A stretch of DNA of 63,686 nucleotides from Patescibacteria group bacterium (lineage in GTDB: Bacteria; Patescibacteriota; Microgenomatia; UBA8517). Position 1 is the stretch's first letter, and each line of letters opens with the position of its first letter. The DNA is taken from positions 1 to 63,686 of the forward strand of contig JBGQJK010000004.1 of NCBI GenBank assembly GCA_041499035.1, given 5' to 3'. Position numbers and translations under genes: made by a program. Of the stretch, positions 1,570 through 39,966 are shown in pieces. The notes beneath the pieces were generated by a model. That model saw nothing but the letters and a program-made list of their open reading frames with translations. It had not been told where the DNA came from and made no database searches.

Positions 1570-2865
1570 TTACTGAAGAGCAGGCAAATTTCTATTTAAG
1601 ATATCAATATATAAATTTCCGAACTGATATCCGTTCGGATCAATTTCATCTTTACCGGTTCCTGTATTTGTTCTAACCTGCTCCCCGGGTTCCACTGAAG
1701 TTCCCTCTCCCCACTCATTCCAGGTTTCAATTAATTTCCAGGTAACATTTGCCGAGACCATGCTTCTAACCGCGGCCTCAAAATCTGTCGGGTTTCTTGG
1801 AAGACGCTCGGCTGAGCCGTCGTCCAGCCAAAATCCCGGGCTTACAAAGTAATAACCCGGTCCTGAGCCGCTCCTTGCAGCCGGGGCGTACTGATGCCAG
1901 GCGTCGGGCTGATTTGGATCAGTTGGAGATCCTCCATACACCTTAAGTACTGTGTAAAAAGTATTCCCAACCTGAGCGTTGGCATCCTTCCACCTTTGTG
2001 CCATACCGCCGGCGTCATTTGCACCAGCATAAACAAACATTACCGGCTTGCCGTTTACCCTCAACAAATATTGACTTCCCACATATTTGGCCTTTATATA
2101 GTTAAGGTCGCTGACCAACTGACTGACAGACGGATCACTGAAGCCCTCGTTTTCGTAATACATCGCCCACCTCAGGCGCGGATATGGATTATCGCTCCTG
2201 CCCATAAACGAATTGATAATATTGTTAAAGGCCCCGTCCTCACGTGTACCCTGGCCCCACCACGAGGCTATAGCTACACTAATTTTTGCCTCCTTAAGTT
2301 TTCCTGCCTGCCATTTGAAGTTATTGTAGTTACTGGCACTGTAAAGTTCGTTAGGCGGGTCAAGCGCGGATGGATTTGGATCGGGAATATAGTGCGAGAA
2401 CCAGGTATTTGGAGGGTTACCTCCATGGTCTGTCCAGTAACCCCAACCGCTATCGGTGTTTGGATTCTGGAACCAAAGATAAAAGAAAGTCGTGTAATAA
2501 GGAGGATTCGGCTGAAACCCGTTTAACGGTGCAGGAGTTCCGGGCGTTGGAGACGGGGGGTTTGTCGGTGGGTTGGTCGGAGGATGAGCTGTTGGTGTGG
2601 GGGTAGTTGTGGCAGTCGAAGAAAAAACTACATACTTTCCGGCCGAAGCAGCACTGTCATTACCAATCGTTGCAGGCCCAGACAGAGTCGCGGATTCTGC
2701 TTCATAAGCATTGCTTTGCGCGGCTTCCGAAGAACTTGGAGCTCGTTGATTCTTAACAAGTAAAACGGTAACCGGGATTGTTAAAACAATAGCAATAAGG
2801 CCCGAAAACCCCAAAATTTTCCATTTATCCATTAAAAGAAATTTAATTCTCTCGCTAAAAGGCAT
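1570..2865 (-). CDS. secreted GH99-like glycoside hydrolase family protein with N-terminal short CBM-like motif and Pro/Thr linker
   Basis: TM/signal anchor, then the YEAESATLSGPATIGNDSAASAGKYVVFS motif and a PT linker. The catalytic-like region contains FFYLWF..., SVAIASWWGQG, YYENEG and ETWNEWGEGTSVEP, resembling GH99-type proteins. Confidence 0.5.
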   Translation of the reverse strand: MPFSERIKFLLMDKWKILGFSGLIAIVLTIPVTVLLVKNQRAPSSSEAAQSNAYEAESATLSGPATIGNDSAASAGKYVVFSSTATTTPTPTAHPPTNPPTNPPSPTPGTPAPLNGFQPNPPYYTTFFYLWFQNPNTDSGWGYWTDHGGNPPNTWFSHYIPDPNPSALDPPNELYSASNYNNFKWQAGKLKEAKISVAIASWWGQGTREDGAFNNIINSFMGRSDNPYPRLRWAMYYENEGFSDPSVSQLVSDLNYIKAKYVGSQYLLRVNGKPVMFVYAGANDAGGMAQRWKDANAQVGNTFYTVLKVYGGSPTDPNQPDAWHQYAPAARSGSGPGYYFVSPGFWLDDGSAERLPRNPTDFEAAVRSMVSANVTWKLIETWNEWGEGTSVEPGEQVRTNTGTGKDEIDPNGYQFGNLYIDILNRNLPALQ

Positions 2866-2958: not shown

Positions 2959-4515
2959 ATGAAGAATTTCATTCTGGCTTGTCTTTTGATAATAATCATT
3001 TCGGCCCTTACTTTCGGCTTATCTAAACAGGTCTCGGCTTCACTCCTAACCCTTACCCTGAATCCCGTCGCTGACTCCTATGTCGACGCCGGGAATCCCA
3101 CAACAAACAACGGTACCACTACTCAGATTAGAATAGATGGGTCTCCAATTGTAAGAAGCTATCTTCGTTTTAATGTGACAGGAATTACCGGTACCGTTTC
3201 TTCGGCAACTCTAAAAATTTATGCAAATAGCGCACAGTCCACTGGTTTTGAAATTCATAGGGTTTCCGATACCGCCTGGGGGGAAACAACTATTACTTAC
3301 AGTAATGCGCCGGCATATGATGCCCCGATTTTGGGAACATCCGGAGCCTTGAAAGCCGGCACTTGGTATAGTACTGATATAACTTCGGCAGTCACAGGGA
3401 ATGGATTAAATAGCTTTTTACTTTTGACAACAAACTCAACCGCGGAAAGTCTTGGGAGTCGCGAGTCGGCGACACCTCCTCAGCTTGTGGTCGTCTATTC
3501 TGACAGCTCAACTCCGACACCGACGGTAACTCCAACACCTACGGCATTACCTACCCCAAGCCCAACAATCGCACCCACCCCAACCGCTACCCCAACGGTC
3601 ACTCCAATTCCAACGCCTACACCGACACTTGCGCCCACACCTTCACCGATAGTTACCCCGACTCCAACGCCAATATCTTCAGGCGACCCGGTAATTGCCG
3701 CTGCGGGAGATATCGGTTGCAAACTAGGAACAACCTGTAGCGCTCAGGCTGTTTATAATCTAATTCCTCCAATGACACCGGCAGGAATTCTAACGCTCGG
3801 AGACACTCAATATTATTGCGGCTCTGCCCAGGCATTTGCCCAAGTTTTTAATCCTTCATGGGGGCAGTCCAAATCTATAATTCACCCCGCAGTTGGAAAT
3901 CACGAATACCTAACCTCGGGTGCCTCTGATTGTACCTCCGCAAACACAGGGGCGGCAGGATATTATGGCTATTTTGGTAGTGCGGCAGGAAATCCTTCTC
4001 AGGGGTATTACAGCTACGATATCGGCAGTTGGCACCTTATTTCACTTAATACCCAATGCAGTTCTGCAGGTGGTTGCGGTTCTGGTTCACCACAATATAC
4101 TTGGCTACAGACCGACTTAGCAAATCACTCAAATACATGCACTCTTGCTTACTATCACATTCCTCTTTATTCGGAAGGAGGCAGAGCCAACGCTAATTCA
4201 CAACCGATGTTTAGCTTGATGTATCAAAAAGGAGTTGACCTTGTTTTAACAGGACACGACCATATTTATGAAAGATTCAAACCCCAAGACGCAAGCGGTA
4301 ACGCGGTAACAAATGGCATAACCGAGTTCGTTGTTGGTACGGGAGGCGCAAACCATACTTCAATAGTTTCATCACTTGCAAACTCCGCTACCGCCAACGC
4401 TACTACATTCGGTGTTCTAAAACTTACACTTCATTCGGGTAGTACGGACTATAAATTTGTTCCCGAAACAACCAGTGGAACTTTTACTGACTCCGGAACT
4501 ATTCTTTGTCACTAA
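2959..4515 (+). CDS. secreted metallophosphoesterase with N-terminal DNRLRE/CBM96-like domain and Pro/Thr linker
   Basis: Signal peptide, then [15 protein letters not shown]...SYLRFNV...ATLKIYA...[12 protein letters not shown] (DNRLRE-type) and a ~55-aa PT linker. Calcineurin-like motifs follow: [25 protein letters not shown]. Confidence 0.75.
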
Positions 4516-5059: not shown

Positions 5060-6208
5060 ATGCGATCTAATTTGAGAAAATATATTAGGTTAGTCACATT
5101 TTCAGTAGTATTATTGGCAGTTTTCTTCATGGTTATTCTCAGTGTCAGAGCAGCCCAAACCAATGGCTATGAAGCGGAATCCGCATCCCTTCAGGGCCCG
5201 GTAACTATTGGGTCCGATAGTACCGCTTCTGGCGGAAAATATGTTGTTTTCTCAGCTTCCGGAAATACCCCTCCCCCAAGTACCGGAACATCAACTCCCC
5301 GTCCCGGAACTCCTACCCCTGTCGCTACACCAACTAAAACTCCGGTTCCGACTCAACCGCCAACCGGTGGTGGAGGGGACGCTGTTATTGCTGCAGCGGG
5401 AGACATTGCCTGTGGGGTCGGAAGTACAGGAGCCGCATGTAAACAGGTTGCAACGGCAGCGCTCCTGACCGCAGTAAATCCGGTTGCAGTTCTTCCCCTC
5501 GGAGACGTTCAGTACGAAGAAGGGACTCTTTCCGACTTTCAAAATTACTACAACCCTTCCTGGGGTAAATTTAAAAGCATTACGTTTCCGTCAGTGGGCA
5601 ACCACGAATATTTAACATCAGGGGCCAGCGGCTATTTTGATTATTTCAACGGAGTAGGAAACGCGACGGGTGTCGCGGGCGATAGAGGCAAAGGTTATTA
5701 TGCAGTTAACGTTGGTGCGTGGAGACTTTACGCGCTAAACAGTAATTGCGGCAGCGCCGGGGGCTGCCAGGCCGGTTCTCCTCAAGAAACTTGGCTTCGA
5801 GCAGATCTCAAATCAAATCCCCATCAATGTGTTCTGGCATATTTCCATCACCCGCTTTATACATCGGGGAGTCGGGCAACACCGGCGGTGGCCCCGCTTT
5901 ACCAGGCGCTATATGACAATGGAGCAGAGCTAATTCTTAACGGCCATGAACACAACTACGAGCGCTTTGCCCCGCAGGACGCCAAAGGAAACTTGGATAT
6001 GGGGAAAGGGGTAAGGGAGTTTGTAGTTGGAACCGGCGGAAGGAACTTTACACAGTTCGTAACAAGTGCTAAAAACAGTGAGGTTAAAAACGATGTTACA
6101 TTTGGTATACTTAAACTAACATTGCATCCGGCAAGTTACGACTTTACATTTATGCCAATCACAGGGTCGTCATTTACGGATCAGGGGTCAGCGGTAGCTT
6201 GCCACTAA
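5060..6208 (+). CDS. secreted metallophosphoesterase (paralog of 2959-4515) with short N-terminal CBM-like motif
   Basis: Signal anchor, then NGYEAESASLQGPVTIGSDSTASGGKYVVFS and a PT linker. Motifs AAGDIA, GDVQY, GNHEY and GHEHNYERF follow. Collinear with the catalytic half of 2959-4515. Confidence 0.75.
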   Translation: MRSNLRKYIRLVTFSVVLLAVFFMVILSVRAAQTNGYEAESASLQGPVTIGSDSTASGGKYVVFSASGNTPPPSTGTSTPRPGTPTPVATPTKTPVPTQPPTGGGGDAVIAAAGDIACGVGSTGAACKQVATAALLTAVNPVAVLPLGDVQYEEGTLSDFQNYYNPSWGKFKSITFPSVGNHEYLTSGASGYFDYFNGVGNATGVAGDRGKGYYAVNVGAWRLYALNSNCGSAGGCQAGSPQETWLRADLKSNPHQCVLAYFHHPLYTSGSRATPAVAPLYQALYDNGAELILNGHEHNYERFAPQDAKGNLDMGKGVREFVVGTGGRNFTQFVTSAKNSEVKNDVTFGILKLTLHPASYDFTFMPITGSSFTDQGSAVACH

Positions 6209-6209
6209 A

Positions 6210-6716
6210 ATGAAAAGAACTATTACTATCATCTCCAGCAGCCTTGTGGTAGTTTTGTCTTTAGCTGTAGTTGTGGTTGCAACTCGCAGGCTGCAGCAAA
6301 ATACCAGTACCGTAGGCACAAGCTCGTTTGCTGCAGTACTTACACCAAAAGACCCAAACTTTACAGAGTTCCAGGGTAGTCTTGCACCAGGGTTCCCGGA
6401 TTTTCCGGTTTATCCTGGAGCCCGAATTTCAAGTTCACGTAAAGAAACTAGAGGGACAGACGGTGTAAACGGCTTTAGCGCCGACTGGACGGTTGGCGGG
6501 GACAATGTTATAACCGAAATTGCGGGTTGGTACACTAATGAACTTACCAAGCAAGGTTGGAAAAAAGTCTCGGTTCAAGATGAAAATGATCTCACTGAGC
6601 AGTCGTTAAAATTCTCAAAGGCAGGCCAATCGATCGTCTTAAGCATTGGGAGAGGCGAAAGTGCTAATCCTTATACTATTAGTATATTGGTTGATATCCC
6701 GGTAGACAAATTATAA
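6210..6716 (+). CDS. hypothetical N-terminally anchored protein, distant paralog of 13308-13838 and 15142-15651
   Basis: TM helix, then FPDFPVYPGARISS...W.....ITEIAGWYTNELTKQGWKK. The two other small proteins in the island share this motif order. Confidence 0.5.
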   Translation: MKRTITIISSSLVVVLSLAVVVVATRRLQQNTSTVGTSSFAAVLTPKDPNFTEFQGSLAPGFPDFPVYPGARISSSRKETRGTDGVNGFSADWTVGGDNVITEIAGWYTNELTKQGWKKVSVQDENDLTEQSLKFSKAGQSIVLSIGRGESANPYTISILVDIPVDKL

Positions 6717-6750: not shown

Positions 6751-7884
6751 TTAAAAAAACAGCCTCTGAGTAAATAAAAATACTCCAATACACCCGATAA
6801 CAACCGAAGCGGTTTTAACCGCTTTTACTTCCCAGACCTGTCGCCTGATATACCATAATACCGGGAACATTAGTGCAATAATAATAAGTTGGCCAATCTC
6901 AACCCCAACGTTAAAGGAAAGTAGCGAAAAAACAAGACTTTGCTGCTGAAGTCCAAGATCCCGAAGCGCCGACGAAAAGCTGAATCCGTGTATCAGTCCG
7001 AAAAAAAAGCTAATCATCCACCGCTTAGACTGATTTGTAAAAAACAATTTATTTATAAATCCCAACCTAGTATTTTCTTGAGGACTGGATACGATTTTTA
7101 CGTTTTCAAAGGCAACATAGGCAATCGATACGGCAATCATTGATTCTGTAAAACGGGCAGGTAAGACAAATATGCCCATGGTAGCAAGCGAAAGCGTGAT
7201 TGAGTGTGTCAGCGTAAAAGCACTAACAATTTTTAGAAGACTCTTAATGTTTTTGGTTATGATGTGTAAGCTTATTAAAAATAGAATGTGGTCATACCCG
7301 GTCAAAATATGCAGGATGCCAATTTTTAGAAACGTGCCAATAGTTACGAGCATTTGGAAATTATTTATCTTGGATTTTATGGACGGGTAGTCGATATCAA
7401 GAACCGGATTAGTTTTTGAAAATATAAGCTGCTGCCTAAATTTATCAACCTGAATATCGGTTATATTTTCGTGAATTTCTGAAATATTGAAAAATAAATT
7501 ATAAGTAAAATGCAGTTTATCTATTGAGTTTTTGCACGTATACCGGAAGTGGTAGGCGATCCCTTTTATATCAGTGATGTTTTTAACATCTATTAGGTTA
7601 GGTATGCATTTTTGTCCATCATTTTGAATAACGAATCCATTTTCAAAAGGTTTTTGAAAAAACTTAAGATCAATATTGTCAATTGTTTTATTTGGTATCG
7701 GATAATATCCCAAAATATTATTGTAGGGGGTAGTTATAGCCACGTCTATCATAGTGCCGGTTACGGTGATGGACGTGTAGGTAAGAGATGCATCATGCGC
7801 ATGTGCGGAAGGTATTGAAAAAGTAAGAAAAAAGAAGCTTAAGCACAAAAAATATATTAGAGGGGTAATTTTCATTTTAAGCAT
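6751..7884 (-). CDS. HupE/UreJ family membrane protein with large N-terminal extracytoplasmic domain
   Basis: GILHILTGYDHILFLISL is the HupE/UreJ signature, followed by several TM helices. The longest ORF (to 7980) overlaps the divergent gene. ATGs at 7884 and 7875 (MLKMKITPLIYFL signal-like) are likelier starts. Confidence 0.6.
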   Translation of the reverse strand: MLKMKITPLIYFLCLSFFFLTFSIPSAHAHDASLTYTSITVTGTMIDVAITTPYNNILGYYPIPNKTIDNIDLKFFQKPFENGFVIQNDGQKCIPNLIDVKNITDIKGIAYHFRYTCKNSIDKLHFTYNLFFNISEIHENITDIQVDKFRQQLIFSKTNPVLDIDYPSIKSKINNFQMLVTIGTFLKIGILHILTGYDHILFLISLHIITKNIKSLLKIVSAFTLTHSITLSLATMGIFVLPARFTESMIAVSIAYVAFENVKIVSSPQENTRLGFINKLFFTNQSKRWMISFFFGLIHGFSFSSALRDLGLQQQSLVFSLLSFNVGVEIGQLIIIALMFPVLWYIRRQVWEVKAVKTASVVIGCIGVFLFTQRLFF

Positions 7885-7918
7885 TTTATTATAATATAGT
7901 GGACGCGAAGCAATATAC

Positions 7919-9628
7919 ATGAATAGATTTTTGAAAAAAAATTCTGCCAAAATACTGTATATTACGGTCCTCGTATTCACTTTTCTTTCCCACGCGTCTT
8001 ATCTAAATAGTGGATTTACCTGGCTTGATCATGGGGATATTGAAGCCGGGCGAACTATCATTCCTCTTTCGGACTATCCTATTATGTTAGTCACACGATT
8101 TGGAGAAACAGGATTCTACAGGCCCCTTGTTACATTTACCAATAGTTTAGATTATGCGCTTTATAAAACAAATGCCACAGGATACCATCTAACAAATACT
8201 TTGCTCCACACTGCAGTTACCGCCGTAGTACCTCTTTTTCTGTCTGTTTTTTTTACTTTTACCGCAGTAGAAATGCTTCTGGCAATGCTTATCGTTGGAG
8301 TTCACCCCCTCTCATGGTTGGAGGTCGGTGCAATTACGCACAGACAGGAACTTTTTTTGACACTCTTTACTCTTCTGACTGCCTACTTCCATAAAGAGGC
8401 AAGACTTCAAAGGCGGGAACTTTATAAGGTTCTTGCCGCAACTTGTTTTTTGCTGGCACTTTTTTCCAAAGAAACAGCTATTGTGATTGTCCCCGCAATC
8501 ATTATTTTTTGGGAGTTAATCCAGAAAAAAAATAAACTCAAAAGTATAAAGCAAAAATCCCAGTTGAGTCTCTATATCTCTGAAGTGATTGTATTTGGGA
8601 TATATATATTATTTCGCCAGCGAGCAGTACCAGAGCTTTGGAGAGCGTCAAGCCCTCCCCTTTCTTTCTCTGATGCAATAGGAACCCGCTTATCAGTTCT
8701 ATCTCGATTAGTAATAGATTTTGTTAGTCCCGTGCGTCCACCCCTCAGTGACGCGATCCCGGTTGTAGGACTATTCACGCCTATTCCAATGTTAATCTTT
8801 ATAGCATTGGTAATTCTTGTAGTACTTATTATTAAAAGGGGAATTAAATCCGAATTAGGGAGAGCAATCATTTTATGCTTAATTCTTTTGACGCCTGCAC
8901 TAAATATTATTCCTGTTCCACGAATTGGTTCTCCACATTATGGGTATTTACCACTTGTTGTTTTTAGTGCGCTCGTGATACTTATTGTTCGCTTCCTAAG
9001 AAAATCTTTTGATACCCACGGTATTTTCATCCTTGTAGTTGTTGGGTTCTGGATTCTTGTCATGGCTATGAGTACTTTTTGGGGCGGTTTTCATTTTAAA
9101 GATGACTACACACTGTTTCAGCCGGAAGTTCTCCACGACTCTCACTTTCTGGAAGGATATTATTATTTAGGTAACTACTACTTTAAAAAACAAAATCTGG
9201 AGGCTGCCGAGAAAGAGTATTTTCTAGCCTTAAAGTCTGACCCAAAAATACTGGCTTACCAGGAAAAACGATCAATATTTATTAATTTAGCCAGTGTCTA
9301 TTTGCAAAATAATCAGCTTGATAAAGCAGATCAGATGCTCTCTAATGCGGAGGAGTTAAAGGGAACGGGAAATGACCTTACCCTTTTTCATAATCGAATG
9401 ATACTTTCATATAAAAAACAAGATTATAAGGCTGTATTTCAACTTTCTCAGGATAATCAGGCCTTTCCCTACAGTCCAATTATATATATAATTTTGGCTG
9501 ATTCACTCCATCATCTCGGCCGTGATACAGAAGCGATAGCTCTTTTGAAAAATCTCCTCCCGCTTCTTAATCAAAGTGAGCAGGGCAAAATTCAATTACT
9601 CATAAAAAGTCTTTCTGTTAATAAATAA
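7919..9628 (+). CDS. polytopic GT-C-like (TMTC/PMT-like) membrane protein with C-terminal TPR repeats
   Basis: The N-terminal FTWLDHGDIEAGR...GFYRPLV...GYHLTNTLLH pattern is followed by ~10 TM helices. The C-terminal TPR-like segment reads YYYLGNYYFKKQNLEAAEKEYFLALKSDP. Confidence 0.5.
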   Translation: MNRFLKKNSAKILYITVLVFTFLSHASYLNSGFTWLDHGDIEAGRTIIPLSDYPIMLVTRFGETGFYRPLVTFTNSLDYALYKTNATGYHLTNTLLHTAVTAVVPLFLSVFFTFTAVEMLLAMLIVGVHPLSWLEVGAITHRQELFLTLFTLLTAYFHKEARLQRRELYKVLAATCFLLALFSKETAIVIVPAIIIFWELIQKKNKLKSIKQKSQLSLYISEVIVFGIYILFRQRAVPELWRASSPPLSFSDAIGTRLSVLSRLVIDFVSPVRPPLSDAIPVVGLFTPIPMLIFIALVILVVLIIKRGIKSELGRAIILCLILLTPALNIIPVPRIGSPHYGYLPLVVFSALVILIVRFLRKSFDTHGIFILVVVGFWILVMAMSTFWGGFHFKDDYTLFQPEVLHDSHFLEGYYYLGNYYFKKQNLEAAEKEYFLALKSDPKILAYQEKRSIFINLASVYLQNNQLDKADQMLSNAEELKGTGNDLTLFHNRMILSYKKQDYKAVFQLSQDNQAFPYSPIIYIILADSLHHLGRDTEAIALLKNLLPLLNQSEQGKIQLLIKSLSVNK

Positions 9629-9718: not shown

Positions 9719-10303
9719 ATGTCTAAACGTATAATCATTGTCTTAGTTGCATTCTTAGGTCTCGGGCTATTACTATTTATTATTATAGTTCGGCAAAATA
9801 ATCTTAAGAACAACCAAGGATTACTTAGTAGATTAAGTACATCCAATAATCCAACCTACCCCCCTTCCACTCTTGCCCAAACAACCCTATGGCTAGAACC
9901 CAAACCTATAACTCCCGATGCAAATGGAAAAGTAACCATTAGCGTCTACATTAATGCAAACGAAAATCAAGTGACGGGAGTACAGCTTGAGATCGCCTAC
10001 GATCCAACTCTACTCCAATACGAGTCAATAAAAGGGAGTGATTTATTGGGAGGTAAACCGGTACTCATAAAAAAGATCGATCAAGGCAGAGGAAGAATTA
10101 CATTCGGAGTTGGGCTTGGGCCGGACCCGCAAAGTGCGCCCATCCAGGGTGCAGACGAAATTGCCACACTCGTCTTGAGACCTGTCTCAAAAACTGTTGG
10201 AAGCACAGAGGTCAAGCTGCTACCTGAATCAAACATTACTGCAATAGGAGTGAGCGGATCGGCGTTAACAGATACAAAAAATACAACTGTGAATTTAAAG
10301 TAA
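9719..10303 (+). CDS. membrane-anchored cohesin domain protein
   Basis: N-terminal TM helix, then GKVTISVYINANENQVTGVQLEIAYDPTLLQYESIKGSDLLGG...GRITFGV...ATLVLRPV, which fits a cohesin module pattern. Confidence 0.7.
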   Translation: MSKRIIIVLVAFLGLGLLLFIIIVRQNNLKNNQGLLSRLSTSNNPTYPPSTLAQTTLWLEPKPITPDANGKVTISVYINANENQVTGVQLEIAYDPTLLQYESIKGSDLLGGKPVLIKKIDQGRGRITFGVGLGPDPQSAPIQGADEIATLVLRPVSKTVGSTEVKLLPESNITAIGVSGSALTDTKNTTVNLK

Positions 10304-10310
10304 GACCACA

Positions 10311-11981
10311 ATGATTAAAAAAATCATCCAGAGGATAAGAGAATATCGCTTTATTGTTCTGCCGGTAGTGCTTATTGGGATGTTCGTCTATGTGTATACC
10401 TATCTCCACGGAACTCCATTTCAGTCTCACGCTCAAAGTACCGCAACAGTGACATTCGGAGCCGTCGGAGACATGGGCGGAAGTAGTAATGGTCAAGCTG
10501 TATTAAGCGCGGCCGCTGGAGCTAATCTTAACTTTTTCCTACACGTTGGAGATTTTAGTTATGACAGTCAGGGAGGCCCTTCTGGCTGGCCGACCTGGGT
10601 CAAAAGTATTGTTGGCACAATTCTTCCCTATGAGATAGTCGAGGGGAATCACGACAGTTGTTGTATTGCAACCTATGTACAAGGGCTCCCCCACAAAATA
10701 TCTAACTTAGGCCAACAGTTTAGTGGGTCCTACGGCATAGATTATTATTTTGACTATCCAACCACAAGTCCCCTGATGCGGGTTATTATGATTAGTCCTG
10801 GACTTTACGGCGTAGATACTAATTGGCTCAATACTTCCATAGACTCAGCCAAAGCAGCGGGGTTGTGGGTAATAGTAGGCAATCATCTCAATTCCATTAG
10901 CACTGGACAGAAAAGCAATGAGATAGGAACCACCCTCGACACATTGCTAACTAAAAAAGTTGACCTAATTTTACAGGGACATGATCATAATTATCAAAGG
11001 AGTAAACAGCTTACTTGCGCGCCCAGGAGTACCGTACAGACGAGCTGCATTGTAAATAATGGACCTAACTATACCAAAGGAGTAGGATCGGTCTTACTTA
11101 TTGATGGAACGGGAGGAAATGGCTTCTATGGAGTAAGCGCATCTGATTCAGAAGCAGGCTATTTTGCTGCGATTAACAGTAATACATATGGGTATACAAA
11201 GTTTACCGTCACACAAACACAGCTATCTGCTCAATTTATCCGTGCTGCAGGGGGGACGTTTTCTGATAGTTTTACTATCAGCTCAGGCGGCGGTCCAAAC
11301 CCAACACCCGTCGTTACTCCGACTCCAACCCCCAATCCTACCGGCACACCCCGCCCGGGTTCTACACCGACACCCACACCAATTAAAACCGCTACTCCTG
11401 CACCGACTAGAACACCTACCCCAACACCGGCACCAACAAATTGTGTAGCGGTATCGAATAGTCTGGGTGTTGCAACGTTCACTGCTACAGCAGCAACCAC
11501 CGGAAGCTATCGTGTCTGGTCCAGAATTATGGCGAGTAGTAATTCTTCAAACTCGTACTATATCCAAGTTGATAATGGCTGCCCGACACTTGTCGGAGGC
11601 GCGGTGATTCCCTTAAACACCTGGACCTGGGTAAACTATCAGAACGGCAGCACGAGTCAGACGATAAGCTTTAACCTTGCCGCTGGGGCTCACACGGTAA
11701 AACTAATCGGGAAATCGGCAAACACAAAAATCGACCGGCTTATTATTACTAATAACACAAGTTGTATTCCAACAGGAACCGGGGACAACTGCGCAACTGC
11801 CGGCACGGCAAATCCGGCAGCTGATGTCAATAGCGACGGCAGAGTTAATATTGTGGACATCGGCATAATTATAGACAACTATGGCAAAAGTCCTCCTCCC
11901 AACCTGAGGGCCGACGTAAATGGCGATGGAACTGTGAATATAGTTGACATTGGCATCGTAATAGATAATTATGGACTGTAG
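10311..11981 (+). CDS. secreted metallophosphoesterase - PT linker - CBM-like domain - type I dockerin
   Basis: Motifs GAVGDMG, HVGDFSY, EGNHDS and GHDHNYQRS, then a PT linker. A beta-rich module follows (SYRVWSRIMA...WTWVNY...AGAHTVKL...IDRLII). The protein ends in duplicated DVNSDGRVNIVDIGIIIDNYG / DVNGDGTVNIVDIGIVIDNYG dockerin repeats. Confidence 0.8.
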   Translation: MIKKIIQRIREYRFIVLPVVLIGMFVYVYTYLHGTPFQSHAQSTATVTFGAVGDMGGSSNGQAVLSAAAGANLNFFLHVGDFSYDSQGGPSGWPTWVKSIVGTILPYEIVEGNHDSCCIATYVQGLPHKISNLGQQFSGSYGIDYYFDYPTTSPLMRVIMISPGLYGVDTNWLNTSIDSAKAAGLWVIVGNHLNSISTGQKSNEIGTTLDTLLTKKVDLILQGHDHNYQRSKQLTCAPRSTVQTSCIVNNGPNYTKGVGSVLLIDGTGGNGFYGVSASDSEAGYFAAINSNTYGYTKFTVTQTQLSAQFIRAAGGTFSDSFTISSGGGPNPTPVVTPTPTPNPTGTPRPGSTPTPTPIKTATPAPTRTPTPTPAPTNCVAVSNSLGVATFTATAATTGSYRVWSRIMASSNSSNSYYIQVDNGCPTLVGGAVIPLNTWTWVNYQNGSTSQTISFNLAAGAHTVKLIGKSANTKIDRLIITNNTSCIPTGTGDNCATAGTANPAADVNSDGRVNIVDIGIIIDNYGKSPPPNLRADVNGDGTVNIVDIGIVIDNYGL

Positions 11982-12010
11982 AGTAAATATTTATTATAAT
12001 TTATTAACTG

Positions 12011-12487
12011 ATGAATAATCTGCCTAAAAACAAGCTAGTGCTGATGATCGCAGGCCTCTTAGTCTTGTTGCTAATAGGGTTTGTGGTATTTTACTTGGCA
12101 ACGCCTCAAAGTCTTTATTGGTCTGCCAAAGAAGTCGGAACGGATGAGGTTGATGTCTATCTTCAGGGACCGGAAGCTCCCAAAGTATCGGGTTTTGACT
12201 TAAAAATTGCATTTGATAGAAGTAATGTCCATGTAGACTCAGCCGAGGCTGGCAGCTTTTTTGCAAGTCCCATTACTGTAAAATTCGACAGCAATAGCCT
12301 TTCTTATTCATTAATAACAAATCCGGTAAATAAAACCGTTTCTGACCCCACAAAACCGGTTATGAAATTCCGCTTGACCCCAAGCCCATTAACCGGTTAC
12401 AAGTTTTCCGTTCTACCCGCAAGCCAAGTCTATGTCAGCGGGTCGGGAGGAGCTTTCCCGAAAGCATCTGATTTAATTTTAAAATAA
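12011..12487 (+). CDS. membrane-anchored cohesin-like protein
   Basis: N-terminal TM helix, then VDVYLQGPEAPKVSGFDLKIAFDRSNVHVDSAEAGSFF...MKFRLTP. The cohesin-like pattern is weaker than in its neighbours. Confidence 0.45.
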   Translation: MNNLPKNKLVLMIAGLLVLLLIGFVVFYLATPQSLYWSAKEVGTDEVDVYLQGPEAPKVSGFDLKIAFDRSNVHVDSAEAGSFFASPITVKFDSNSLSYSLITNPVNKTVSDPTKPVMKFRLTPSPLTGYKFSVLPASQVYVSGSGGAFPKASDLILK

Positions 12488-12491
12488 AACA

Positions 12492-13304
12492 ATGTCCAAA
12501 GGAAAGATAATAGGAATTACGATAGGGTCTTTATTTTTGGTTGCCGGTATCGCCGTGGGAGTATTTTTAGCCCTCAGACAACAGCAACTTAATAGTAGTG
12601 CTGCTCCGGCCACCTCGATGCTAATCACACCCGCTTCACAGAACAAGAATGCAGGCGATACCTTCTCCTACACAGTTCAGATGGATACGGGAACAAATAA
12701 CTCGATTGGTTTTGATCTGGTACTCGACTTTAACCCTCAAATCTTTCAAGTCACAAGTATTACTCAAGGGCCGGCAATTACAGGTTTTCAGGAAATCAGA
12801 AATAGTATAGATAATGCAACCGGAAAGATTTACTATAGTGTTTATAATGCTGATGCTACAAAGGCAGTACACGGATCAGGGCTTAGTATATTAACAGTTT
12901 CGGGGATGGTTAAGGCAGGCTCCCCCGCCGGTAGTTATAGTTTTACATTTGATTCAAGTAGCGCGGTGGCAGGGCTAACTGAAGGCCAAAACGTTCTTAT
13001 TTTGACAGCTCCGGGGTCGGTTGTAGTTGGCACAGGTGGCGCATCAGCTGCCACACCCACAGCAACTCCTGGACACACGGCCACGCCAACACCGACATCA
13101 GCCGGAAGCAGCTCAACGGCCACTCCGACTGCCACACCGATAGCCACAGCTACCGCAACAAGTTCTGATACAAGTTCCCCCAGTGCCACTCCAACTCCGA
13201 CATCCATGCCCATTCCTGTTACAGGTTTTGATTTTCCGACAATGATTATGGGCGTGGTCGGGCTCGGAGCAATAGTCCTCAGTATTATCGCCATGGCACT
13301 ATAA
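12492..13304 (+). CDS. cohesin domain protein with N-terminal TM, Ser/Thr/Pro linker and C-terminal IPVTG + hydrophobic tail
   Basis: AGDTFSYTVQMDTGTNNSIGFDLVLDFNPQIFQVTSITQG...GKIYYSV...LTVSGMVKAG fits a cohesin pattern. It is followed by a TATP-rich linker and the C-terminus PIPVTGFDFPTMIMGVVGLGAIVLSIIAMAL. Confidence 0.7.
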   Translation: MSKGKIIGITIGSLFLVAGIAVGVFLALRQQQLNSSAAPATSMLITPASQNKNAGDTFSYTVQMDTGTNNSIGFDLVLDFNPQIFQVTSITQGPAITGFQEIRNSIDNATGKIYYSVYNADATKAVHGSGLSILTVSGMVKAGSPAGSYSFTFDSSSAVAGLTEGQNVLILTAPGSVVVGTGGASAATPTATPGHTATPTPTSAGSSSTATPTATPIATATATSSDTSSPSATPTPTSMPIPVTGFDFPTMIMGVVGLGAIVLSIIAMAL

Positions 13305-13307
13305 CCA

Positions 13308-13838
13308 ATGGAAGCTCCTGAAAAGAAGACTCAAGAAACTAACAGAAATCCTACCTCTTTTATTTCCAAACAGAAATTATTTGTTGCAATCGCGATTGTG
13401 GCAGTAGTCCTAACTGCCGGCTTTGTTTACTCACAGTTTATACCGCAGGGCGGTAGCAATATAAAACTTGCTCAGGGTTTTCCGGTTATTCCTATATACC
13501 CCGGCGCGACACTTTCTAAATCGGCATCCGACCCGCACGAAGGGGTTATGTATATCGGTGTTAAATATAGCGCAACCTGGACCAGTAAAGCCCAAGTACC
13601 TGATATTTCAAAATGGTATCTTGAAAAACTTAAAGCCTCCGGATGGACTGTAGATACTCTGCCGGCAAACTCGGAAGCTAGCGATGTACAACTGATTACA
13701 CTCTATAATAAAACCTATAACTTAAATATGTCATTCACGAGAGATCAAAACACCGGTCTTACAACTATCACATCTGAATTTTCCACAAATTATAAAGATT
13801 TTTGCAATAACATGTATGGAAAACCTTGTTCGGATTAA
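13308..13838 (+). CDS. hypothetical N-terminally anchored protein (paralog of 15142-15651)
   Basis: Contains GFPVIPIYPGATLSKSASDPHEG..GVKYSATWTSKAQVPDISKWYLEKLKASGWTVD. It aligns along its full length with 15142-15651. Confidence 0.55.
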   Translation: MEAPEKKTQETNRNPTSFISKQKLFVAIAIVAVVLTAGFVYSQFIPQGGSNIKLAQGFPVIPIYPGATLSKSASDPHEGVMYIGVKYSATWTSKAQVPDISKWYLEKLKASGWTVDTLPANSEASDVQLITLYNKTYNLNMSFTRDQNTGLTTITSEFSTNYKDFCNNMYGKPCSD

Positions 13839-15048
13839 AAAAACAGTCTATTTGTTTTTGATATTAATTGGCTTATTTGTGTTTTCGCTTGTTAATCCTT
13901 CAAAAACACTTGCCGGCTTTAGATTTGTAACGTGGGGGGACAGCCGCGACAGCCCAAGTATTTTGGGGCAAGAGTCAACCCAAGTAAAAACGTTAAGCCC
14001 CCAGCCGGTGTTTACTCTTTTTAATGGGGACTTGTGCGGCAGTTGGAGTACCAGCTGTATGCAAGCTTGGGTCGGTTATATAAACGGTAGCTCGAATAAC
14101 GGAATTGGGAATATTACATTCCCAGTGCGCGGGAATCACGATTCGGGAAGCGGTACAGCCTGGTCAACGTTTTTCAACCAAAGCACAACTGCAACAAGAG
14201 TTGGGGCGACTAATTACAGTGCTCTCACTCCGGATATGACCTACTCTTTTGACTACCAAAACGCTCATTTTGTGGGTCTTGACCTTCCCGGCGGTGACGT
14301 ATCCAGTATGAGTAGCGCTGAAATCACTTGGTTGGATAATGATCTTAAAGCGGCGGAGGCGAGGGGGATTCAGCTTGAGTTTTTATTCTGGCATGGCCCA
14401 TTATATTATGTTGACGACCATTCTTCTTCTGCGCCGGGAGGATTAGTTACAGTCCTAAATAATCATCCTAATGTTGTAGCTGGTTACTACGGGCATGAGC
14501 ATGTTCTTGCCCATGTAACGGTGGACAGTAGCCGTTATCCAGCAATGACAAATCACGCAATTGAAGAGTTCGTAGACGGTACTGCCGGTGCGCCTCATTA
14601 TAGTTGCGCTTCAGGGAGAAGCGATTTTTGTCAGGCGGTGGATGCTTTTGCGGTTACCGACGTACTTAGCGATACCCAGTTTACCGTATCTCTTTATAAA
14701 CTGGGCTCAGGCACCCCGATATACCAAAAAACATTTACAAAAGGGGTAGTAACCCCTCCTGGAAGTGGAACCCCATCACCTACCGGGGCCGCTACGCCAA
14801 CACCAAGATCCTCACCCACTCCGACTCCCGGACCCCGTACCCCTACCCCAATCCCTACGCCTACTATTAATCCCCAAGTAGTTGACGTTAATAGCGACAG
14901 AACCATAAACATTGTTGATATCGGTATAATTATCGACAACTACGCTCAGCGCCCACCTGCTAACACCCGAGCTGACATTAATCACGACGGGGTAGCAAAT
15001 ATTATTGACATCGGTCTTATAATTGACCACTACGGCCAAACTTACTAA
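13816..15048 (+). CDS. secreted metallophosphoesterase - PT linker - type I dockerin
   Basis: Signal peptide, then WGDSRD, NGDLCG, RGNHDS and GHEHVLAH motifs and a PT linker. It ends in duplicated DVNSDRTINIVDIGIIIDNYA / DINHDGVANIIDIGLIIDHYG. Confidence 0.8.
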   Translation: MENLVRIKKTVYLFLILIGLFVFSLVNPSKTLAGFRFVTWGDSRDSPSILGQESTQVKTLSPQPVFTLFNGDLCGSWSTSCMQAWVGYINGSSNNGIGNITFPVRGNHDSGSGTAWSTFFNQSTTATRVGATNYSALTPDMTYSFDYQNAHFVGLDLPGGDVSSMSSAEITWLDNDLKAAEARGIQLEFLFWHGPLYYVDDHSSSAPGGLVTVLNNHPNVVAGYYGHEHVLAHVTVDSSRYPAMTNHAIEEFVDGTAGAPHYSCASGRSDFCQAVDAFAVTDVLSDTQFTVSLYKLGSGTPIYQKTFTKGVVTPPGSGTPSPTGAATPTPRSSPTPTPGPRTPTPIPTPTINPQVVDVNSDRTINIVDIGIIIDNYAQRPPANTRADINHDGVANIIDIGLIIDHYGQTY

Positions 15049-15096
15049 TCGAACCTTCACAAGTACTCCGGAATTCAAGAAAATAAATATCTACTA

Positions 15097-15125
15097 TTGA
15101 ACCTGTAAAACCGCAGTGTTATATT
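15097..15125 (+). promoter_or_regulatory. sigma70-like promoter for 15142-15651
   Basis: TTGAAC (15097-15102), a 17-nt spacer, then TATATT (15120-15125), 16 nt upstream of the ATG. Confidence 0.45.
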
Positions 15126-15141
15126 TTAAACAGTTGCCTAT

Positions 15142-15651
15142 ATGCGATATCTTGAAGAGTTTACCCAGATATCTTTTAAAAAATCAGCCTTCGTAATTAA
15201 AAACAAAGTACTCCTTGCTTTTCTGATATTGGGACTCATTATAACTTTCGGGCTTACATTCTTAAAATTTAACGGTGCATTAAATGCGAGTGCTCAACTT
15301 TTGAAAGAGTTCCCGAAAATTCCGGTATTTCCTAACGCAAGGCTTACAGGAACTGCAACGGACCCACATGAAGCTGAAAAGTACAACGGTATCAAATATA
15401 GTGCAACCTGGAGTGTTAAGGACAAAGTTCCCAATGTCTCAAAATGGTACGTATTAAAACTAAATTCGGAAGGTTGGACTATAGATACACGGTCGGCAAA
15501 CCTGGATGCTTACGATATACAACTTATTACGTTTCATAACGACACATATACTTTAAACCTGTCAGTTATGAGAGATGCTGCAAGAAATCTTACAAGCGTT
15601 GTCACTGAAATCTCAACCAGATATTCCGATACACGGGAGCCGGGCGAGTAA
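15142..15651 (+). CDS. hypothetical N-terminally anchored protein (paralog of 13308-13838)
   Basis: Contains EFPKIPVFPNARLTGTATDPHEAEKYNGIKYSATWSVKDKVPNVSKWYVLKLNSEGWTID. Confidence 0.55.
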   Translation: MRYLEEFTQISFKKSAFVIKNKVLLAFLILGLIITFGLTFLKFNGALNASAQLLKEFPKIPVFPNARLTGTATDPHEAEKYNGIKYSATWSVKDKVPNVSKWYVLKLNSEGWTIDTRSANLDAYDIQLITFHNDTYTLNLSVMRDAARNLTSVVTEISTRYSDTREPGE

Positions 15652-15676
15652 GCAGAGTAATCTGATATAATTTGTC

Positions 15677-17407
15677 ATGGTTCTTTTACTGCTCTTTGCG
15701 CTTCTGTCCGGTCTTGCAACAATCCTGGCACCCTGCATCTGGCCTGTTCTACCAATTGTCTTATCATCATCAGTTGGGGGAAAAGGACACAAAAGACCGT
15801 TTGGAATTACCCTCGGCGTAATGATTAGTTTCGCGGTATTCACACTTGCGGTTTCCACTCTGGTTAGGGTCTTTCATCTTGATCCAAATATTTTAAGAAT
15901 TATTGCGGTTGTCATAATCGCATTTCTCGGGCTATCCATGGTTTTTCCTCCCCTCTATGCAAAATTTGAAGTTCTGGTAACACGGATTGGAAATGTTTTT
16001 GGAGGAAAAGTTAAAGAAGGAAATGATTTCTTACCGGGGTTTATTACCGGTCTTTCGCTTGGAATTGTCTGGTCACCCTGCGCAGGGCCGATTTTGGCAA
16101 CAATTGCGACACTGGCGGCAATGGGAAAGGTAAATTTGGATGTTGTGCTGGTCACTATTGCCTATGTAGTTGGAGTTGGTATTCCTCTTTTTATTTTTGC
16201 CTACGGTGGCCAACAAATAATTACTAAACTAAAAGGAGTTTCCAAATATACCGGGAAAGTCCAGCAGATTTTCGGGGTTATCATGATCTTGGCAGCAATC
16301 GCAATTTATACTAATTACGATCAAACCTTGCAACTGCAGCTACTGAACACTTTTCCGGCACTGGGTACCGCAGTTAACGGTTTTGAGAATAGCGCCCCGG
16401 TCGTTACGCAGTTGAATATTCTAAAGGGCGAGTCCCCTGCCGCGCTACAAGATACGGCTGGGCTCTTTAATACCAACGTCCCTGCTCCGGAGTTTACTGG
16501 GATAACCAACTGGCTGAATACCGATAAAACGATCTCCTTGAAAGACTTGAAAGGAAAAGTTGTCCTGGTCGATTTTTGGACTTACACCTGCATCAACTGC
16601 ATTAGAACTCTCCCGCATGTAACGACGTGGTATGACAAATACAAAGACCAGGGTTTTGTGGTAATCGGAGTTCATACTCCTGAGTTTCAATTTGAACATG
16701 AGACCAAAAACGTAGAAGCTGCAATCAAAATGTATAATATCCACTACCCTGTGGCTCAGGATAATAGCTATTCAACCTGGAATACATACAGCAACAATTA
16801 CTGGCCTGCGGAATACTTAATAGATGCCGAAGGACGAATAAGGCGTACCCACTTTGGCGAAGGAGAATACGACCAAACAGAGATGGCCATTCAGGAACTT
16901 TTGAAAGAGGCAGGAGACAAAGTCCGGGCCCCACTTACAAACATGCCTGACCAAACACCGATAGAAGCAATATCCCCGGAAACTTATTTAGGAACGGCCA
17001 GGATGCAGTATTATTTCCCTAACGGGACCGTTAATAATGGCAACAATATATTTACCCTATCCGACAGCCTTACCCCCAACTCGTTCAGTTTTGGCGGAGA
17101 ATGGAACATTAGTCCTGAGGAAGCCATAACCGGCAAAAATGCCGTACTTAACTATAATTTTACTGCTAATAAAGTTTATATAGTCATGCGGCCCGGCTCC
17201 GCAAAAGCTCCAAAAGTAAAAGTGTTTGTCGACGGAAAGCCAGTGGATATAACAAACGCGGGAGCCGACGCCACGGGCGGGGTTATTACAATAGACGGCG
17301 ACAGGCTTTATAACCTAATCGATCTACATGGAGCTTCTGGCAATCATGTTCTCAAGCTTGAATTTGAAAACGTGGGGGTCGAAGCCTTTGCCTTCACTTT
17401 TGGCTAA
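15677..17407 (+). CDS. DipZ-type protein: CcdA/DsbD transmembrane domain fused to thioredoxin-like domain and C-terminal beta-sandwich
   Basis: The N-terminal polytopic domain carries conserved Cys (LAPCIWPVLP, WSPCAGP). The redoxin domain has WTYTCINCIRTLPH. The C-terminal ~170 aa resembles the mycobacterial DipZ architecture. Confidence 0.8.
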   Translation: MVLLLLFALLSGLATILAPCIWPVLPIVLSSSVGGKGHKRPFGITLGVMISFAVFTLAVSTLVRVFHLDPNILRIIAVVIIAFLGLSMVFPPLYAKFEVLVTRIGNVFGGKVKEGNDFLPGFITGLSLGIVWSPCAGPILATIATLAAMGKVNLDVVLVTIAYVVGVGIPLFIFAYGGQQIITKLKGVSKYTGKVQQIFGVIMILAAIAIYTNYDQTLQLQLLNTFPALGTAVNGFENSAPVVTQLNILKGESPAALQDTAGLFNTNVPAPEFTGITNWLNTDKTISLKDLKGKVVLVDFWTYTCINCIRTLPHVTTWYDKYKDQGFVVIGVHTPEFQFEHETKNVEAAIKMYNIHYPVAQDNSYSTWNTYSNNYWPAEYLIDAEGRIRRTHFGEGEYDQTEMAIQELLKEAGDKVRAPLTNMPDQTPIEAISPETYLGTARMQYYFPNGTVNNGNNIFTLSDSLTPNSFSFGGEWNISPEEAITGKNAVLNYNFTANKVYIVMRPGSAKAPKVKVFVDGKPVDITNAGADATGGVITIDGDRLYNLIDLHGASGNHVLKLEFENVGVEAFAFTFG

Positions 17408-25570: not shown

Positions 25571-26572
25571 TTACTTAGAATGTTTTTTGTAAAAATGTGA
25601 GATATTTGGAGGCGGCGGCCACTTTTTTACGTCTTTTTCGTCGTGACCTCTAGAATGAATCTTACCAAAAGATTCATGAATAAATTTGCCGCAATCGCGA
25701 ACTACTTTCTTTAGCCAATGATGAAAATGGTTGTCCTGATCACCCCTAGGGGTTGGTGACGGAACTAAAGTGGATTCTGTCGTCGGAGTGGAAGTAGGTG
25801 TCGGAGAAGGAGTTGGTGTTGGAGTTACCGTTGGTTCATCAGCCGGGACTACGGTTGGGGTGGCGGACGGGGTTGGTGTAGGAGTCGGGGTAGGTGTTTC
25901 GGTTGGAGTGGGAGTTGGAGTAATTATCGGTTCCTCGGTGGGCAGAACCGAGGGGGTAGGCGTAGGTGTTTCAGTTGGGCTAACCAAACAATTGTACTTT
26001 CCAATATCGGTAAAACTATCTATAGCAAAACCGTCCCATTGAACTGACGGATCAAAAAAATCGGAACCGTTTGGGTCCCCTGAATCAGTGCTGCACTTCC
26101 GGGTCAGCGTATGATTCAGAGTGCTTGTCGCTCCCGTTCCCCATTCCGATCCGGGGTCTGTTCCAATTTGACCAGTAATATCGAGTGTAGAGCCATCTTT
26201 TTGTAAGGCAACTGCGTCGTTACCATTGAAATTTAAATTTCCTGACAATTGATTACATTTTGGAGAAAGAATGGAACCCGCGGATGTATGACAAATAACG
26301 TAAACCTGACCCGGATTTAAATTCGATGGGAGAGTAATAGAAATGGGGTTTGCAGAAGTTGTTGACCCATTAGTATAAACATTTACCGAATACCCCGCCA
26401 AATCAATAATAGAAGAAGTGGGGTTATATATCTCAACCGCTTTGTTGTTGCTTGTACCTTCTATATATTCGGAAAAAAACAAATCGGTTCCTTGAGCTTT
26501 GGTTTGAATTGAAATAAACGGAATGATAATAAAAAACGCAGTAACTAGAAGTGAATAAAGAATTTTTCTCAT
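25571..26572 (-). CDS. secreted lamin-tail-domain (LTD, ExeM/NucH N-terminal-like) protein with PT linker and His/Lys-rich tail
   Basis: Signal peptide, then [40 protein letters not shown]...VYVICH (LTD pattern) and a ~70-aa PT linker. The tail reads [14 protein letters not shown]...HSRGHDEKD...KKHSK. Confidence 0.6.
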
Positions 26573-39248: not shown

Positions 39249-39253
39249 AACTT

Positions 39254-39964: not shown

Positions 39965-39966
39965 GA

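Follow-up and report, generated by a model that had tools for sequence, protein, structure and literature searches.

Known cohesin-dockerin systems and the present locus

Among the described cohesin-dockerin systems, those that appear functionally closest to the locus analysed here are ScaE of Ruminococcus flavefaciens and Sca2 of Ruminococcus bromii (the amylosome), in which sortase-anchored single cohesins hold dockerin-bearing enzymes on the wall (PMC4611034, PMC11557425). Sca2 binds the dockerins of amylases and peptidases, and a general role in anchoring proteins at the surface has been suggested for it (PMC4611034, PMC11557425). Bacterial and archaeal cohesin and dockerin modules have also been catalogued outside cellulosomes (Peer et al. 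2009, as cited in PMC9012536), and a planctosome has been hypothesised for peptidases (PMC6461901). The locus under study comprises seven genes at positions 9719-15651 of a 63,686-nucleotide stretch of contig JBGQJK010000004.1 (hereafter the window, meaning the whole stretch), which the original prediction, made from the sequence alone, had read as a self-contained arrangement of membrane-anchored cohesins and dockerin-tagged metallophosphoesterases. Our analysis indicates that the locus is probably a lineage-specific, non-cellulosomal cohesin-dockerin module for the surface display of phosphoesterases.

Like ScaE and Sca2, the locus encodes a monovalent cohesin with a C-terminal sortase-type signal (the protein coh3, described below), and in both cases the cargo need not be cellulases. 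The presence of a cohesin and a dockerin in one protein, known from Amy4 of R. bromii (PMC4611034), is also found in loci related to ours (L087, L089, L091 and L092). ScaE and Sca2 belong to Firmicutes, whereas the present host is a tiny-genome member of the Patescibacteria with phosphoesterase cargo; the locus further differs in having additional membrane-anchored cohesins (coh1 and coh2), in lacking a multi-cohesin scaffoldin, in apparently carrying anchors and cargo in one operon, and in that its cohesin-dockerin binding is a prediction. With the classical cellulosome (Clostridium/Acetivibrio thermocellum, CipA-type) it shares the type I-like dockerin with duplicated Ca2+ loops, the cohesin beta-sandwich and the Pro/Thr linkers, but the window contains no multi-cohesin scaffoldin, CBM3, glycoside-hydrolase cargo or SLH anchoring. 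A true cellulosome is ruled out by the lack of a multi-cohesin scaffoldin, of CBM3 and of carbohydrate-active enzyme cargo, since both dockerin proteins are Metallophos enzymes. The non-cellulosomal modules (Peer et al. 2009, the ANME archaea, the planctosome) are similar in that they occur in hosts that do not degrade cellulose, are attached to diverse domains unrelated to carbohydrate-active enzymes and have been proposed to serve general tethering; unlike the present locus, they have for the most part been catalogued or modelled, with no conserved cassette of anchor and cargo, and none in the literature searched involves metallophosphoesterases or Patescibacteria operons.

The literature searched, which did not extend to the catalogue of Peer et al. 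2009 itself, contained no paper linking a dockerin with a metallophosphoesterase. The paper naming both dockerin and purple acid phosphatase dealt with the modelling of protein-protein interfaces and did not connect the terms; none of the papers listed for dockerin and Microgenomates connected them either, and one of these used the terms only in polysaccharide-degradation bookkeeping. As for dockerins in Patescibacteria, the same literature yielded no more than a brief reference to an essential dockerin protein of Southlakia. Within the literature searched, the claim that the system is undescribed stands for the pairing of dockerin and metallophosphoesterase and falls for the device, of which ScaE and Sca2 are the nearest examples. 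The locus is a new use of the known cohesin-dockerin device and not a new kind of system; what is new is the lineage of the host, the use of phosphoesterases as cargo, the compactness of a cassette that unites anchors and cargo and in which catalytic domains can be swapped, and a small AF_1845-like partner protein.

Organisation of the locus and its host

The seven open reading frames all lie on the forward strand and were found, together with the peptides quoted for them, where the original prediction had placed them:

9719-10303, forward strand, coh1, 194 residues: N-terminal transmembrane anchor and single cohesin
10311-11981, forward strand, mpeD1 (enzyme 1), 556 residues: dockerin-bearing metallophosphoesterase
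12011-12487, forward strand, coh2, 158 residues: N-terminal transmembrane anchor and divergent single cohesin
12492-13304, forward strand, coh3, 270 residues: single cohesin with stalk and sorting-type C-terminus
13308-13838, forward strand, unk1, 176 residues: AF_1845-like protein
13816-15048, forward strand, mpeD2 (enzyme 2), 410 residues: dockerin-bearing metallophosphoesterase
15142-15651, forward strand, unk2, 169 residues: AF_1845-like protein

The intergenic gaps among them measure 3-93 bp, with one overlap of 23 bp, and every protein of the locus has an N-terminal hydrophobic segment. In a scan for consensus terminators, candidate sites were no more frequent than in shuffled sequence, and none inside the cluster was convincing. 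Because of this and of the tight packing, the genes from 9719 to 17407, which include a downstream DipZ-type reductase gene, are most likely one operon as judged from their arrangement, and the PMT/TPR gene beginning at 7919 may also be part of it. Rfam and tRNA scans of the window gave no matches and hence no RNA marker for the taxonomic placement.

The rest of the window consists of ordinary chromosomal genes, including tRNA synthetases, SecDF, RecJ, ABC exporters and a secreted SNase. In view of these surroundings, and of a base composition without a break, a mobile or phage element was rejected. The identical mpeD1 protein is also encoded on other contigs, the longest of 689,969 bp; the named relatives come from Woesebacteria, Roizmanbacteria, Gottesmanbacteria, Levyibacteria, Curtissbacteria, WWE3 and Saccharibacteria. 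The host replicon is thus probably a chromosome of the Patescibacteria (Candidate Phyla Radiation, CPR), within the Microgenomatia, in agreement with the reduced-genome host that had been supposed.

Dockerin-bearing phosphoesterases

Domain assignments were judged against the curated (gathering) cutoffs of Pfam, which are 24.1 bits for Cohesin, 22.9 for Dockerin_1, 21.5 for Metallophos, 23 for Metallophos_C and 26.1 for PMT_2. The mpeD1 protein consists of a signal peptide, a metallophosphoesterase domain resembling purple acid phosphatases (PAPs), a Pro/Thr linker, a beta-sandwich module similar to carbohydrate-binding modules (CBMs) and a type I-like dockerin. Its Metallophos (34.4 bits), Metallophos_C (26.7 bits) and Dockerin_1 (35.4 bits, residues 504-551) matches are all above the cutoffs. 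All seven PAP metal ligands are kept (D54, D81, Y84, N113, H192, H224 and H226), and the corresponding motifs GD54MG, GD81FSY84, GN113HD, VGNH192 and GH224DH226 are invariant or nearly so in an alignment of 15 relatives. The closest solved relatives of the catalytic part are plant PAPs (PDB sequence search, E ~3e-4). With PAPs and the PhoD-type secreted phosphatases and diesterases, mpeD1 therefore shares the seven ligands, Metallophos_C and a secretion that fits phosphate scavenging; it differs in its distance from the plant enzymes and in the appended beta-sandwich and dockerin.

The beta-sandwich, a module of ~115 residues flanked by Cys, lies between the Pro/Thr linker and the dockerin and had been overlooked. 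Its sole Pfam match is a weak one to GH115_C (residues 390-481, E 0.005, below cutoff). Single-sequence PDB searches with this module, with coh1 and with coh3 returned chance-level matches only (flagellar sheath, amidohydrolase, MS2 coat protein).

The mpeD2 protein is composed of a signal peptide, a divergent metallophosphoesterase domain, a Pro/Thr linker and a type I-like dockerin, with Metallophos at 25.1 bits and Dockerin_1 at 23.8 bits, both above cutoff. The metal motifs, identified by eye, are of the form D/D/N/H/H/H without the Tyr, and mpeD2 is therefore a generic metallophosphoesterase and not of the PAP type. Each phosphoesterase has 4-9 Cys residues; the cohesins are free of Cys. 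From their sequences, both enzymes are predicted phosphoesterases with phosphatase activity; the cargo consists of phosphoesterases and not of glycoside hydrolases, as had been proposed.

The two dockerins were delimited by motif scan and Pfam, and each comprises two 12-residue Ca-binding loops followed by a helix:

11823-11978, forward strand, mpeD1 dockerin: DVNSDGRVNIVD-IGIIIDNYG and DVNGDGTVNIVD-IGIVIDNYG
14884-15045, forward strand, mpeD2 dockerin: DVNSDRTINIVD-IGIIIDNYA and DINHDGVANIID-IGLIIDHYG

A six-frame motif scan of the 63.7 kb found exactly four dockerin Ca-loop segments (11823-11858, 11913-11948, 14884-14919 and 14974-15009), at the positions earlier reported for the repeats. 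All four fit D-V/I-N-x-D-x-x-x-N-I-V/I-D and belong to segments of ~22 residues arranged in tandem pairs, as in type I dockerins. Both proteins also match the dockerin of PDB entry 2y3n_B (mpeD1, E 3e-4; mpeD2, E 2e-4). The dockerins of mpeD1 and mpeD2 are 69% identical and the recognition helices of the four repeats, listed above, are nearly the same, whereas the catalytic domains have no significant similarity. Near-identical dockerins on otherwise unrelated enzymes point to a shared receptor, and one receptor specificity common to both appears far more likely than specificity pairs. The latter had been raised to account for three anchors against two cargos, and the near-identity of the recognition helices makes them unlikely.

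Cohesin anchor proteins

The coh1 protein has an N-terminal transmembrane anchor (hydrophobic residues 1-29) and a single cohesin (Pfam Cohesin 32.2 bits, E 1.4e-7), and its family profile aligns with that of coh3 at an hhalign probability of 97.5% (E 9e-12). In coh2 a similar anchor precedes a single divergent cohesin, which scores 13.9 bits, below the cutoff; this shortfall counts against the proposed function, and the assignment comes from homologues. BLASTP aligns coh2 along its length with a 173-residue protein of the related locus L090 (E 2e-10), which itself scores 43.6 bits over model positions 4-131 of 139. A hidden Markov model (HMM) built from the other cohesin-like domains with coh2 left out gives it 14.8 bits, against at most 3.1 in 200 shuffles, and the coh2-family and coh3-family profiles match at an hhalign probability of 89% (E 2e-6). 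The top PDB matches of the coh3- and coh2-family profiles are the cellulosomal cohesins 3l8q, 4uyp, 1aoh and 4ums, with modest E-values of 4e-4 to 0.02 (coh3 family against 3l8q, E 4e-4). On the strength of these profile comparisons we accept coh1, coh2 and coh3 as predicted cohesin-fold modules. The window contains no further cohesins, no multi-cohesin protein and none with a CBM3.

The coh3 protein (Pfam Cohesin 34.3 bits) comprises an N-terminal signal or anchor, the cohesin, a Pro/Thr/Ala-rich stalk and a C-terminal IPVTG with a hydrophobic tail; its hydrophobic segments lie at residues 4-30 and 245-270. The C-terminus reads ...MPIPVTGFDFPTMIMGVVGLGAIVLSIIAMAL, in which MPIPVTG, an LPXTG-like motif, is followed by the hydrophobic stretch. 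Five coh3 orthologues keep [LI]P[EV][TS]G with a hydrophobic tail, as in LPVTG (protein P0121), LPETG (L090), LPVSG (L089) and IPVSG (L098). The picture of three proteins that each combine a transmembrane helix with one cohesin is accordingly retained, with the amendment that coh3 carries a sortase-type signal and is not simply membrane-anchored. Taken together, profile searches with Cohesin, Dockerin_1 and Metallophos placed all modules above cutoff with the exception of Cohesin on coh2.

Conservation of the cassette and exchange of cargo

The catalytic family of mpeD1 is widespread and its C-terminal decorations vary, with CBM96, Big, fn3 and dockerin modules among them. A word-indexed homologue search recovered a single relative (P0121) with the coh3 domain and only the query itself with coh1, and the cohesins evolve too fast for such a search. 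Cohesin relatives were found instead by scanning the flanks of enzyme and dockerin loci with custom HMMs. We scanned 81 loci with relatives of the mpeD1 catalytic family in this way, together with the dockerin motif; an HMM built from the full alignment of mpeD1 relatives gave spurious linker and dockerin matches in metagenome loci and was not used for the counts. Dockerin subtypes differ from lineage to lineage; in L008 the enzyme and the neighbouring cohesin-bearing protein have the same one. L007 contains a fusion of metallophosphoesterase, dockerin and phytase.

The dockerin subtype of the window was found in seven close loci of the metagenome scan (L087-L092 and L098), and coh3-like cohesins accompany it in 7/7. 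Across L087-L092, L098 and L166, coh3-like cohesins go with this subtype throughout and coh2-like ones often. The order in L090, dockerin-bearing cargo, coh2-like gene and coh3-like gene with LPETG, is exactly that of the window. The dockerin protein of L098 is rich in Cys and is encoded between coh3-like and coh2-like genes, and in L091 the dockerin is carried by a different metallophosphoesterase between two coh3-like genes. In five loci a single chain combines a coh3-like cohesin with the window dockerin subtype across a long Pro/Thr linker (L087 9209-10159, L088 3214-4164, L089 3-686, L091 2-658 and L092 99-935); such proteins could serve as adaptors, or could assemble with one another head to tail into surface polymers.

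The most informative locus is L166, which encodes the protein P0024: it has an AF_1845-like gene followed by a PF04185 phosphoesterase with the same beta-sandwich and a near-identical dockerin, and then by a coh2 orthologue that is 64% identical to coh2. By domain content and order, this is the window arrangement with a catalytic domain of unrelated fold swapped in. The comparison of related genomes that had been suggested shows that the order of dockerin-bearing cargo, coh2-like and coh3-like genes recurs with its cargo swapped; as read from these loci, the putative display cassette is conserved and its cargo is exchangeable, with a bias towards phosphoesterases. Since relatives load other cargo into the same cassette, the description of the locus as self-contained and phosphoesterase-specific has to be given up.

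AF_1845-like proteins

The original prediction interpreted five of the seven genes, and its domain identifications for these hold; it left uninterpreted unk1 and unk2, whose association with the enzymes is the most consistently conserved of all. Both encode small, membrane-anchored, extracytoplasmic AF_1845-like proteins, whose homologues were already annotated as PF27226 (AF_1845); unk1 itself had no match in the local copy of Pfam. They are paralogues with 44% identity, and the family is small, with 162 representatives. A third member lies upstream of the locus:

6210-6716, forward strand: AF_1845-like gene directly after a metallophosphoesterase gene (5060-6208), matching unk1 at E 6e-9 and unk2 at E 8e-10

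The AlphaFold2 model of the extracytoplasmic domain of unk1 has a pLDDT of ~90 and matches, weakly, folds of the DcrB/PsbP/Mog1 type (Foldseek E 1.6e-3, TM-score 0.37-0.44). In L005, L008, L009, L010, L017, L164, L165 and L166 an AF_1845-like gene directly adjoins the gene of a secreted phosphoesterase, an arrangement that the window shows three times; the enzymes concerned have either of two unrelated folds, Metallophos or PF04185. These neighbourhoods suggest an accessory role for the AF_1845-like membrane proteins as partners of phosphoesterases.

Proposed model and alternative explanations

In the model that we favour, mpeD1 and mpeD2 would be exported by Sec and would dock through their Ca2+-loop dockerins onto single-cohesin anchors kept on the cell. 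The coh3 protein would be wall-linked through the sortase-type [LI]PxTG signal that ends its long Pro/Thr stalk, while coh2, a short protein, and perhaps coh1 would be membrane-held by the N-terminal helix. Retained at the surface, the enzymes would cleave external phospho-esters, and the cell would take up the phosphate and the dephosphorylated products set free. The display platform would be general in the lineage, with cargo exchanged by module shuffling and with phosphoesterases loaded in this genome.

Several observations weigh against this model. The AlphaFold2 model of coh2, made from a four-row alignment, is all-beta with 9 strands and is unreliable (pLDDT 46). The hydrophobic stretch of coh3 is not followed by the basic residues usual in sorting signals, and no Sortase match to Pfam was obtained among the scanned window open reading frames of at least 120 residues, the rest of the ~0.69-Mb genome being outside the scan. 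In L013 (Levyibacteriota) and in L014, an orthologue of coh1 (38-40% identical) lies directly upstream of the gene of a PAP-like enzyme, that of L013 following the same PMT/TPR gene as in the window, and these enzymes (L013 9890-11404, L014 10001-11398) have no dockerin and end in long low-complexity tails, that of L014 with a hydrophobic end; coh1 may therefore have a dockerin-independent role, contacting the enzyme in another way or serving other cargo. In addition, for the dockerin-bearing enzymes of L005 and L165 no cohesin gene was found in the DNA covered. The last two observations, together with the pairwise identity of only ~20% among coh1, coh2 and coh3, would fit a reading in which the dockerins and cohesins of the locus are not mutual partners: the dockerin would be a module for adhesion (to host surface or glycans) or for Ca2+-dependent stability, or would bind cohesins encoded elsewhere, and the cohesins would be independent adhesins of an epibiotic cell. 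The essential Southlakia dockerin-domain protein, discussed as possibly targeting host glycans (PMC10633639), also agrees with it. Against this reading, the window dockerin subtype is repeatedly found beside coh2- and coh3-like genes across independent metagenome loci, and in some of them both modules are in a single chain. Cohesin proximity is moreover enriched for dockerin-bearing enzymes, a cohesin gene being present within 10 kb in 3/7 of their loci (L007, L008 and L040) and in 2/74 of the dockerin-less ones (Fisher p = 0.004), with the reservation that the counts are small and the loci not phylogenetically independent. On balance we regard the absence of partnership as unlikely.

The AF_1845-like gene is the most constant neighbour of the enzymes, more so than any cohesin, and this complicates the display model. 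The functional unit might instead be the phosphoesterase and the AF_1845-like membrane protein, acting as a tether, a chaperone or an inhibitor that guards the cell's own envelope, with the cohesin-dockerin part as an optional add-on of little consequence. The adjacency in eight loci and three times in the window, with enzymes of two unrelated folds, is what such a unit would predict. It leaves unexplained, however, the conserved cassette of dockerin, coh2 and coh3 and the one-chain cohesin-dockerin adaptors; the gene upstream of mpeD1 is coh1 and not an AF_1845-like gene, and the fold match of the domain is weak. We therefore hold this alternative to be quite improbable, more so than the preceding one, and it is not mutually exclusive with the display model. 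A chance or annotation artefact, by which low-complexity, generic beta-sandwich or EF-hand-like sequence would have produced spurious cohesin and dockerin matches, might be suspected from the mpeD2 dockerin, just 0.9 bit over its cutoff, from coh2, under its own, and from the fact that no cohesin has a direct sequence match in the PDB. Four perfect D-x-N-x-D-x-x-x-N-x-x-D loops in correct pairs, with none elsewhere in the window, family profiles that match cellulosomal cohesins specifically, and the conservation of the genes in other genomes leave it barely any credibility, and we consider it effectively refuted. The display of phosphoesterases through cohesin and dockerin is thus the interpretation that we retain.

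Neighbouring genes

Four further genes around the locus are relevant to the model:

2959-4515, forward strand: CBM96 and metallophosphoesterase, secreted, without dockerin (CBM96 109 bits, Metallophos 30 bits)
5060-6208, forward strand: secreted metallophosphoesterase without dockerin (Metallophos 41.7 bits)
7919-9628, forward strand: PMT_2-like (GT-C) multi-pass membrane glycosyltransferase with C-terminal TPR (PMT_2 23.9 bits, below cutoff; TPR_2 31.2 bits)
15677-17407, forward strand: DipZ/DsbD-type membrane thiol-disulfide reductase (DsbD_TM 49 bits, Redoxin/AhpC-TSA 54 bits, Thioredoxin_10 112 bits)

The DipZ-type gene, which had been recognised as closing the locus, starts 25 bp downstream of unk2 and has the full DipZ architecture of these three domains. 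Orthologues of the PMT/TPR gene adjoin cohesin or phosphoesterase genes in L013 (7742-9241, 48% identity) and L007 (1701-3368, 38% identity). Both proteins would probably serve maturation: the DipZ reductase may service the disulfides of the Cys-containing phosphoesterases, and the PMT-like protein may O-glycosylate the Pro/Thr linkers.

The two secreted metallophosphoesterases upstream had also escaped the original prediction. A GH99-like/WbsX-like gene (1570-2865, reverse strand) neighbours the CBM96-metallophosphoesterase gene, and a GH99-like gene recurs beside the pair of AF_1845-like and metallophosphoesterase genes in L008, L010 and L017; this recurrent neighbour is a hint at phosphorylated glycans as substrates of the enzymes. 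Between the two phosphoesterase clusters, at 6751-7980 (reverse strand), is the gene of a membrane protein resembling HupE/UreJ_2 metal transporters, which is found at the same position in L001 and L002; the enzymes may receive their metal through it. A homologue of SNase of 180 residues (56439-56981, reverse strand) adjoins SecDF and could feed nucleotides to surface phosphatases, and a sulfatase-family protein is also among the neighbourhood genes. These neighbours (two further metallophosphoesterases, GH99-like, sulfatase-family, HupE/UreJ and SNase) would fit the scavenging of envelope or other polymers, the substrates being purely conjectural.

Other putative surface or secreted proteins of the window have no dockerin: a lamin-tail-domain protein (25571-26572, reverse strand), an fn3 protein (26692-27420, reverse strand) and a GH18 chitinase-like protein (29210-30376, forward strand). 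Two paralogous MacB-type ABC exporter sets, each with an HlyD-like adaptor, an ATPase and an FtsX/MacB permease, are encoded on the reverse strand at 38025-41241 and 43597-46625, with a two-component system (41276-42938) between them.

Implications for Patescibacteria

CPR/Patescibacteria lack most biosynthetic pathways and obtain nutrients from their surroundings or hosts, and the surface organisation that serves this is largely obscure. As a tentative extension, to which we give a minor share of our confidence, Microgenomatia-type CPR bacteria might possess a dedicated, modular phosphoesterase display, in which wall- and membrane-linked cohesins hold interchangeable dockerin-tagged phosphoesterases of unrelated folds (PAP-like, other metallophosphoesterases, PF04185 and phytase fusions) with an AF_1845-like partner and PMT-decorated linkers, and strip phosphate from envelope polymers of the host or of neighbours, such as teichoic acids, nucleic acids and phospholipid head groups.

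The AF_1845-like partner of the phosphoesterases merits study in its own right, and the very small natural candidate cohesin-dockerin pairs, together with the apparently portable cassette of beta-sandwich and dockerin, are possibly useful for protein display. The known range of cohesin-dockerin assembly would widen to include the acquisition of phosphorus and a major radiation of uncultured bacteria. A compact, conserved operon of anchors and cargo would account for the retention of secreted scavenging enzymes by a tiny cell and, if the proposal is true, dedicated phosphoesterase display would be central to the way in which these ultra-small cells, poor in biosynthesis, obtain nutrients.

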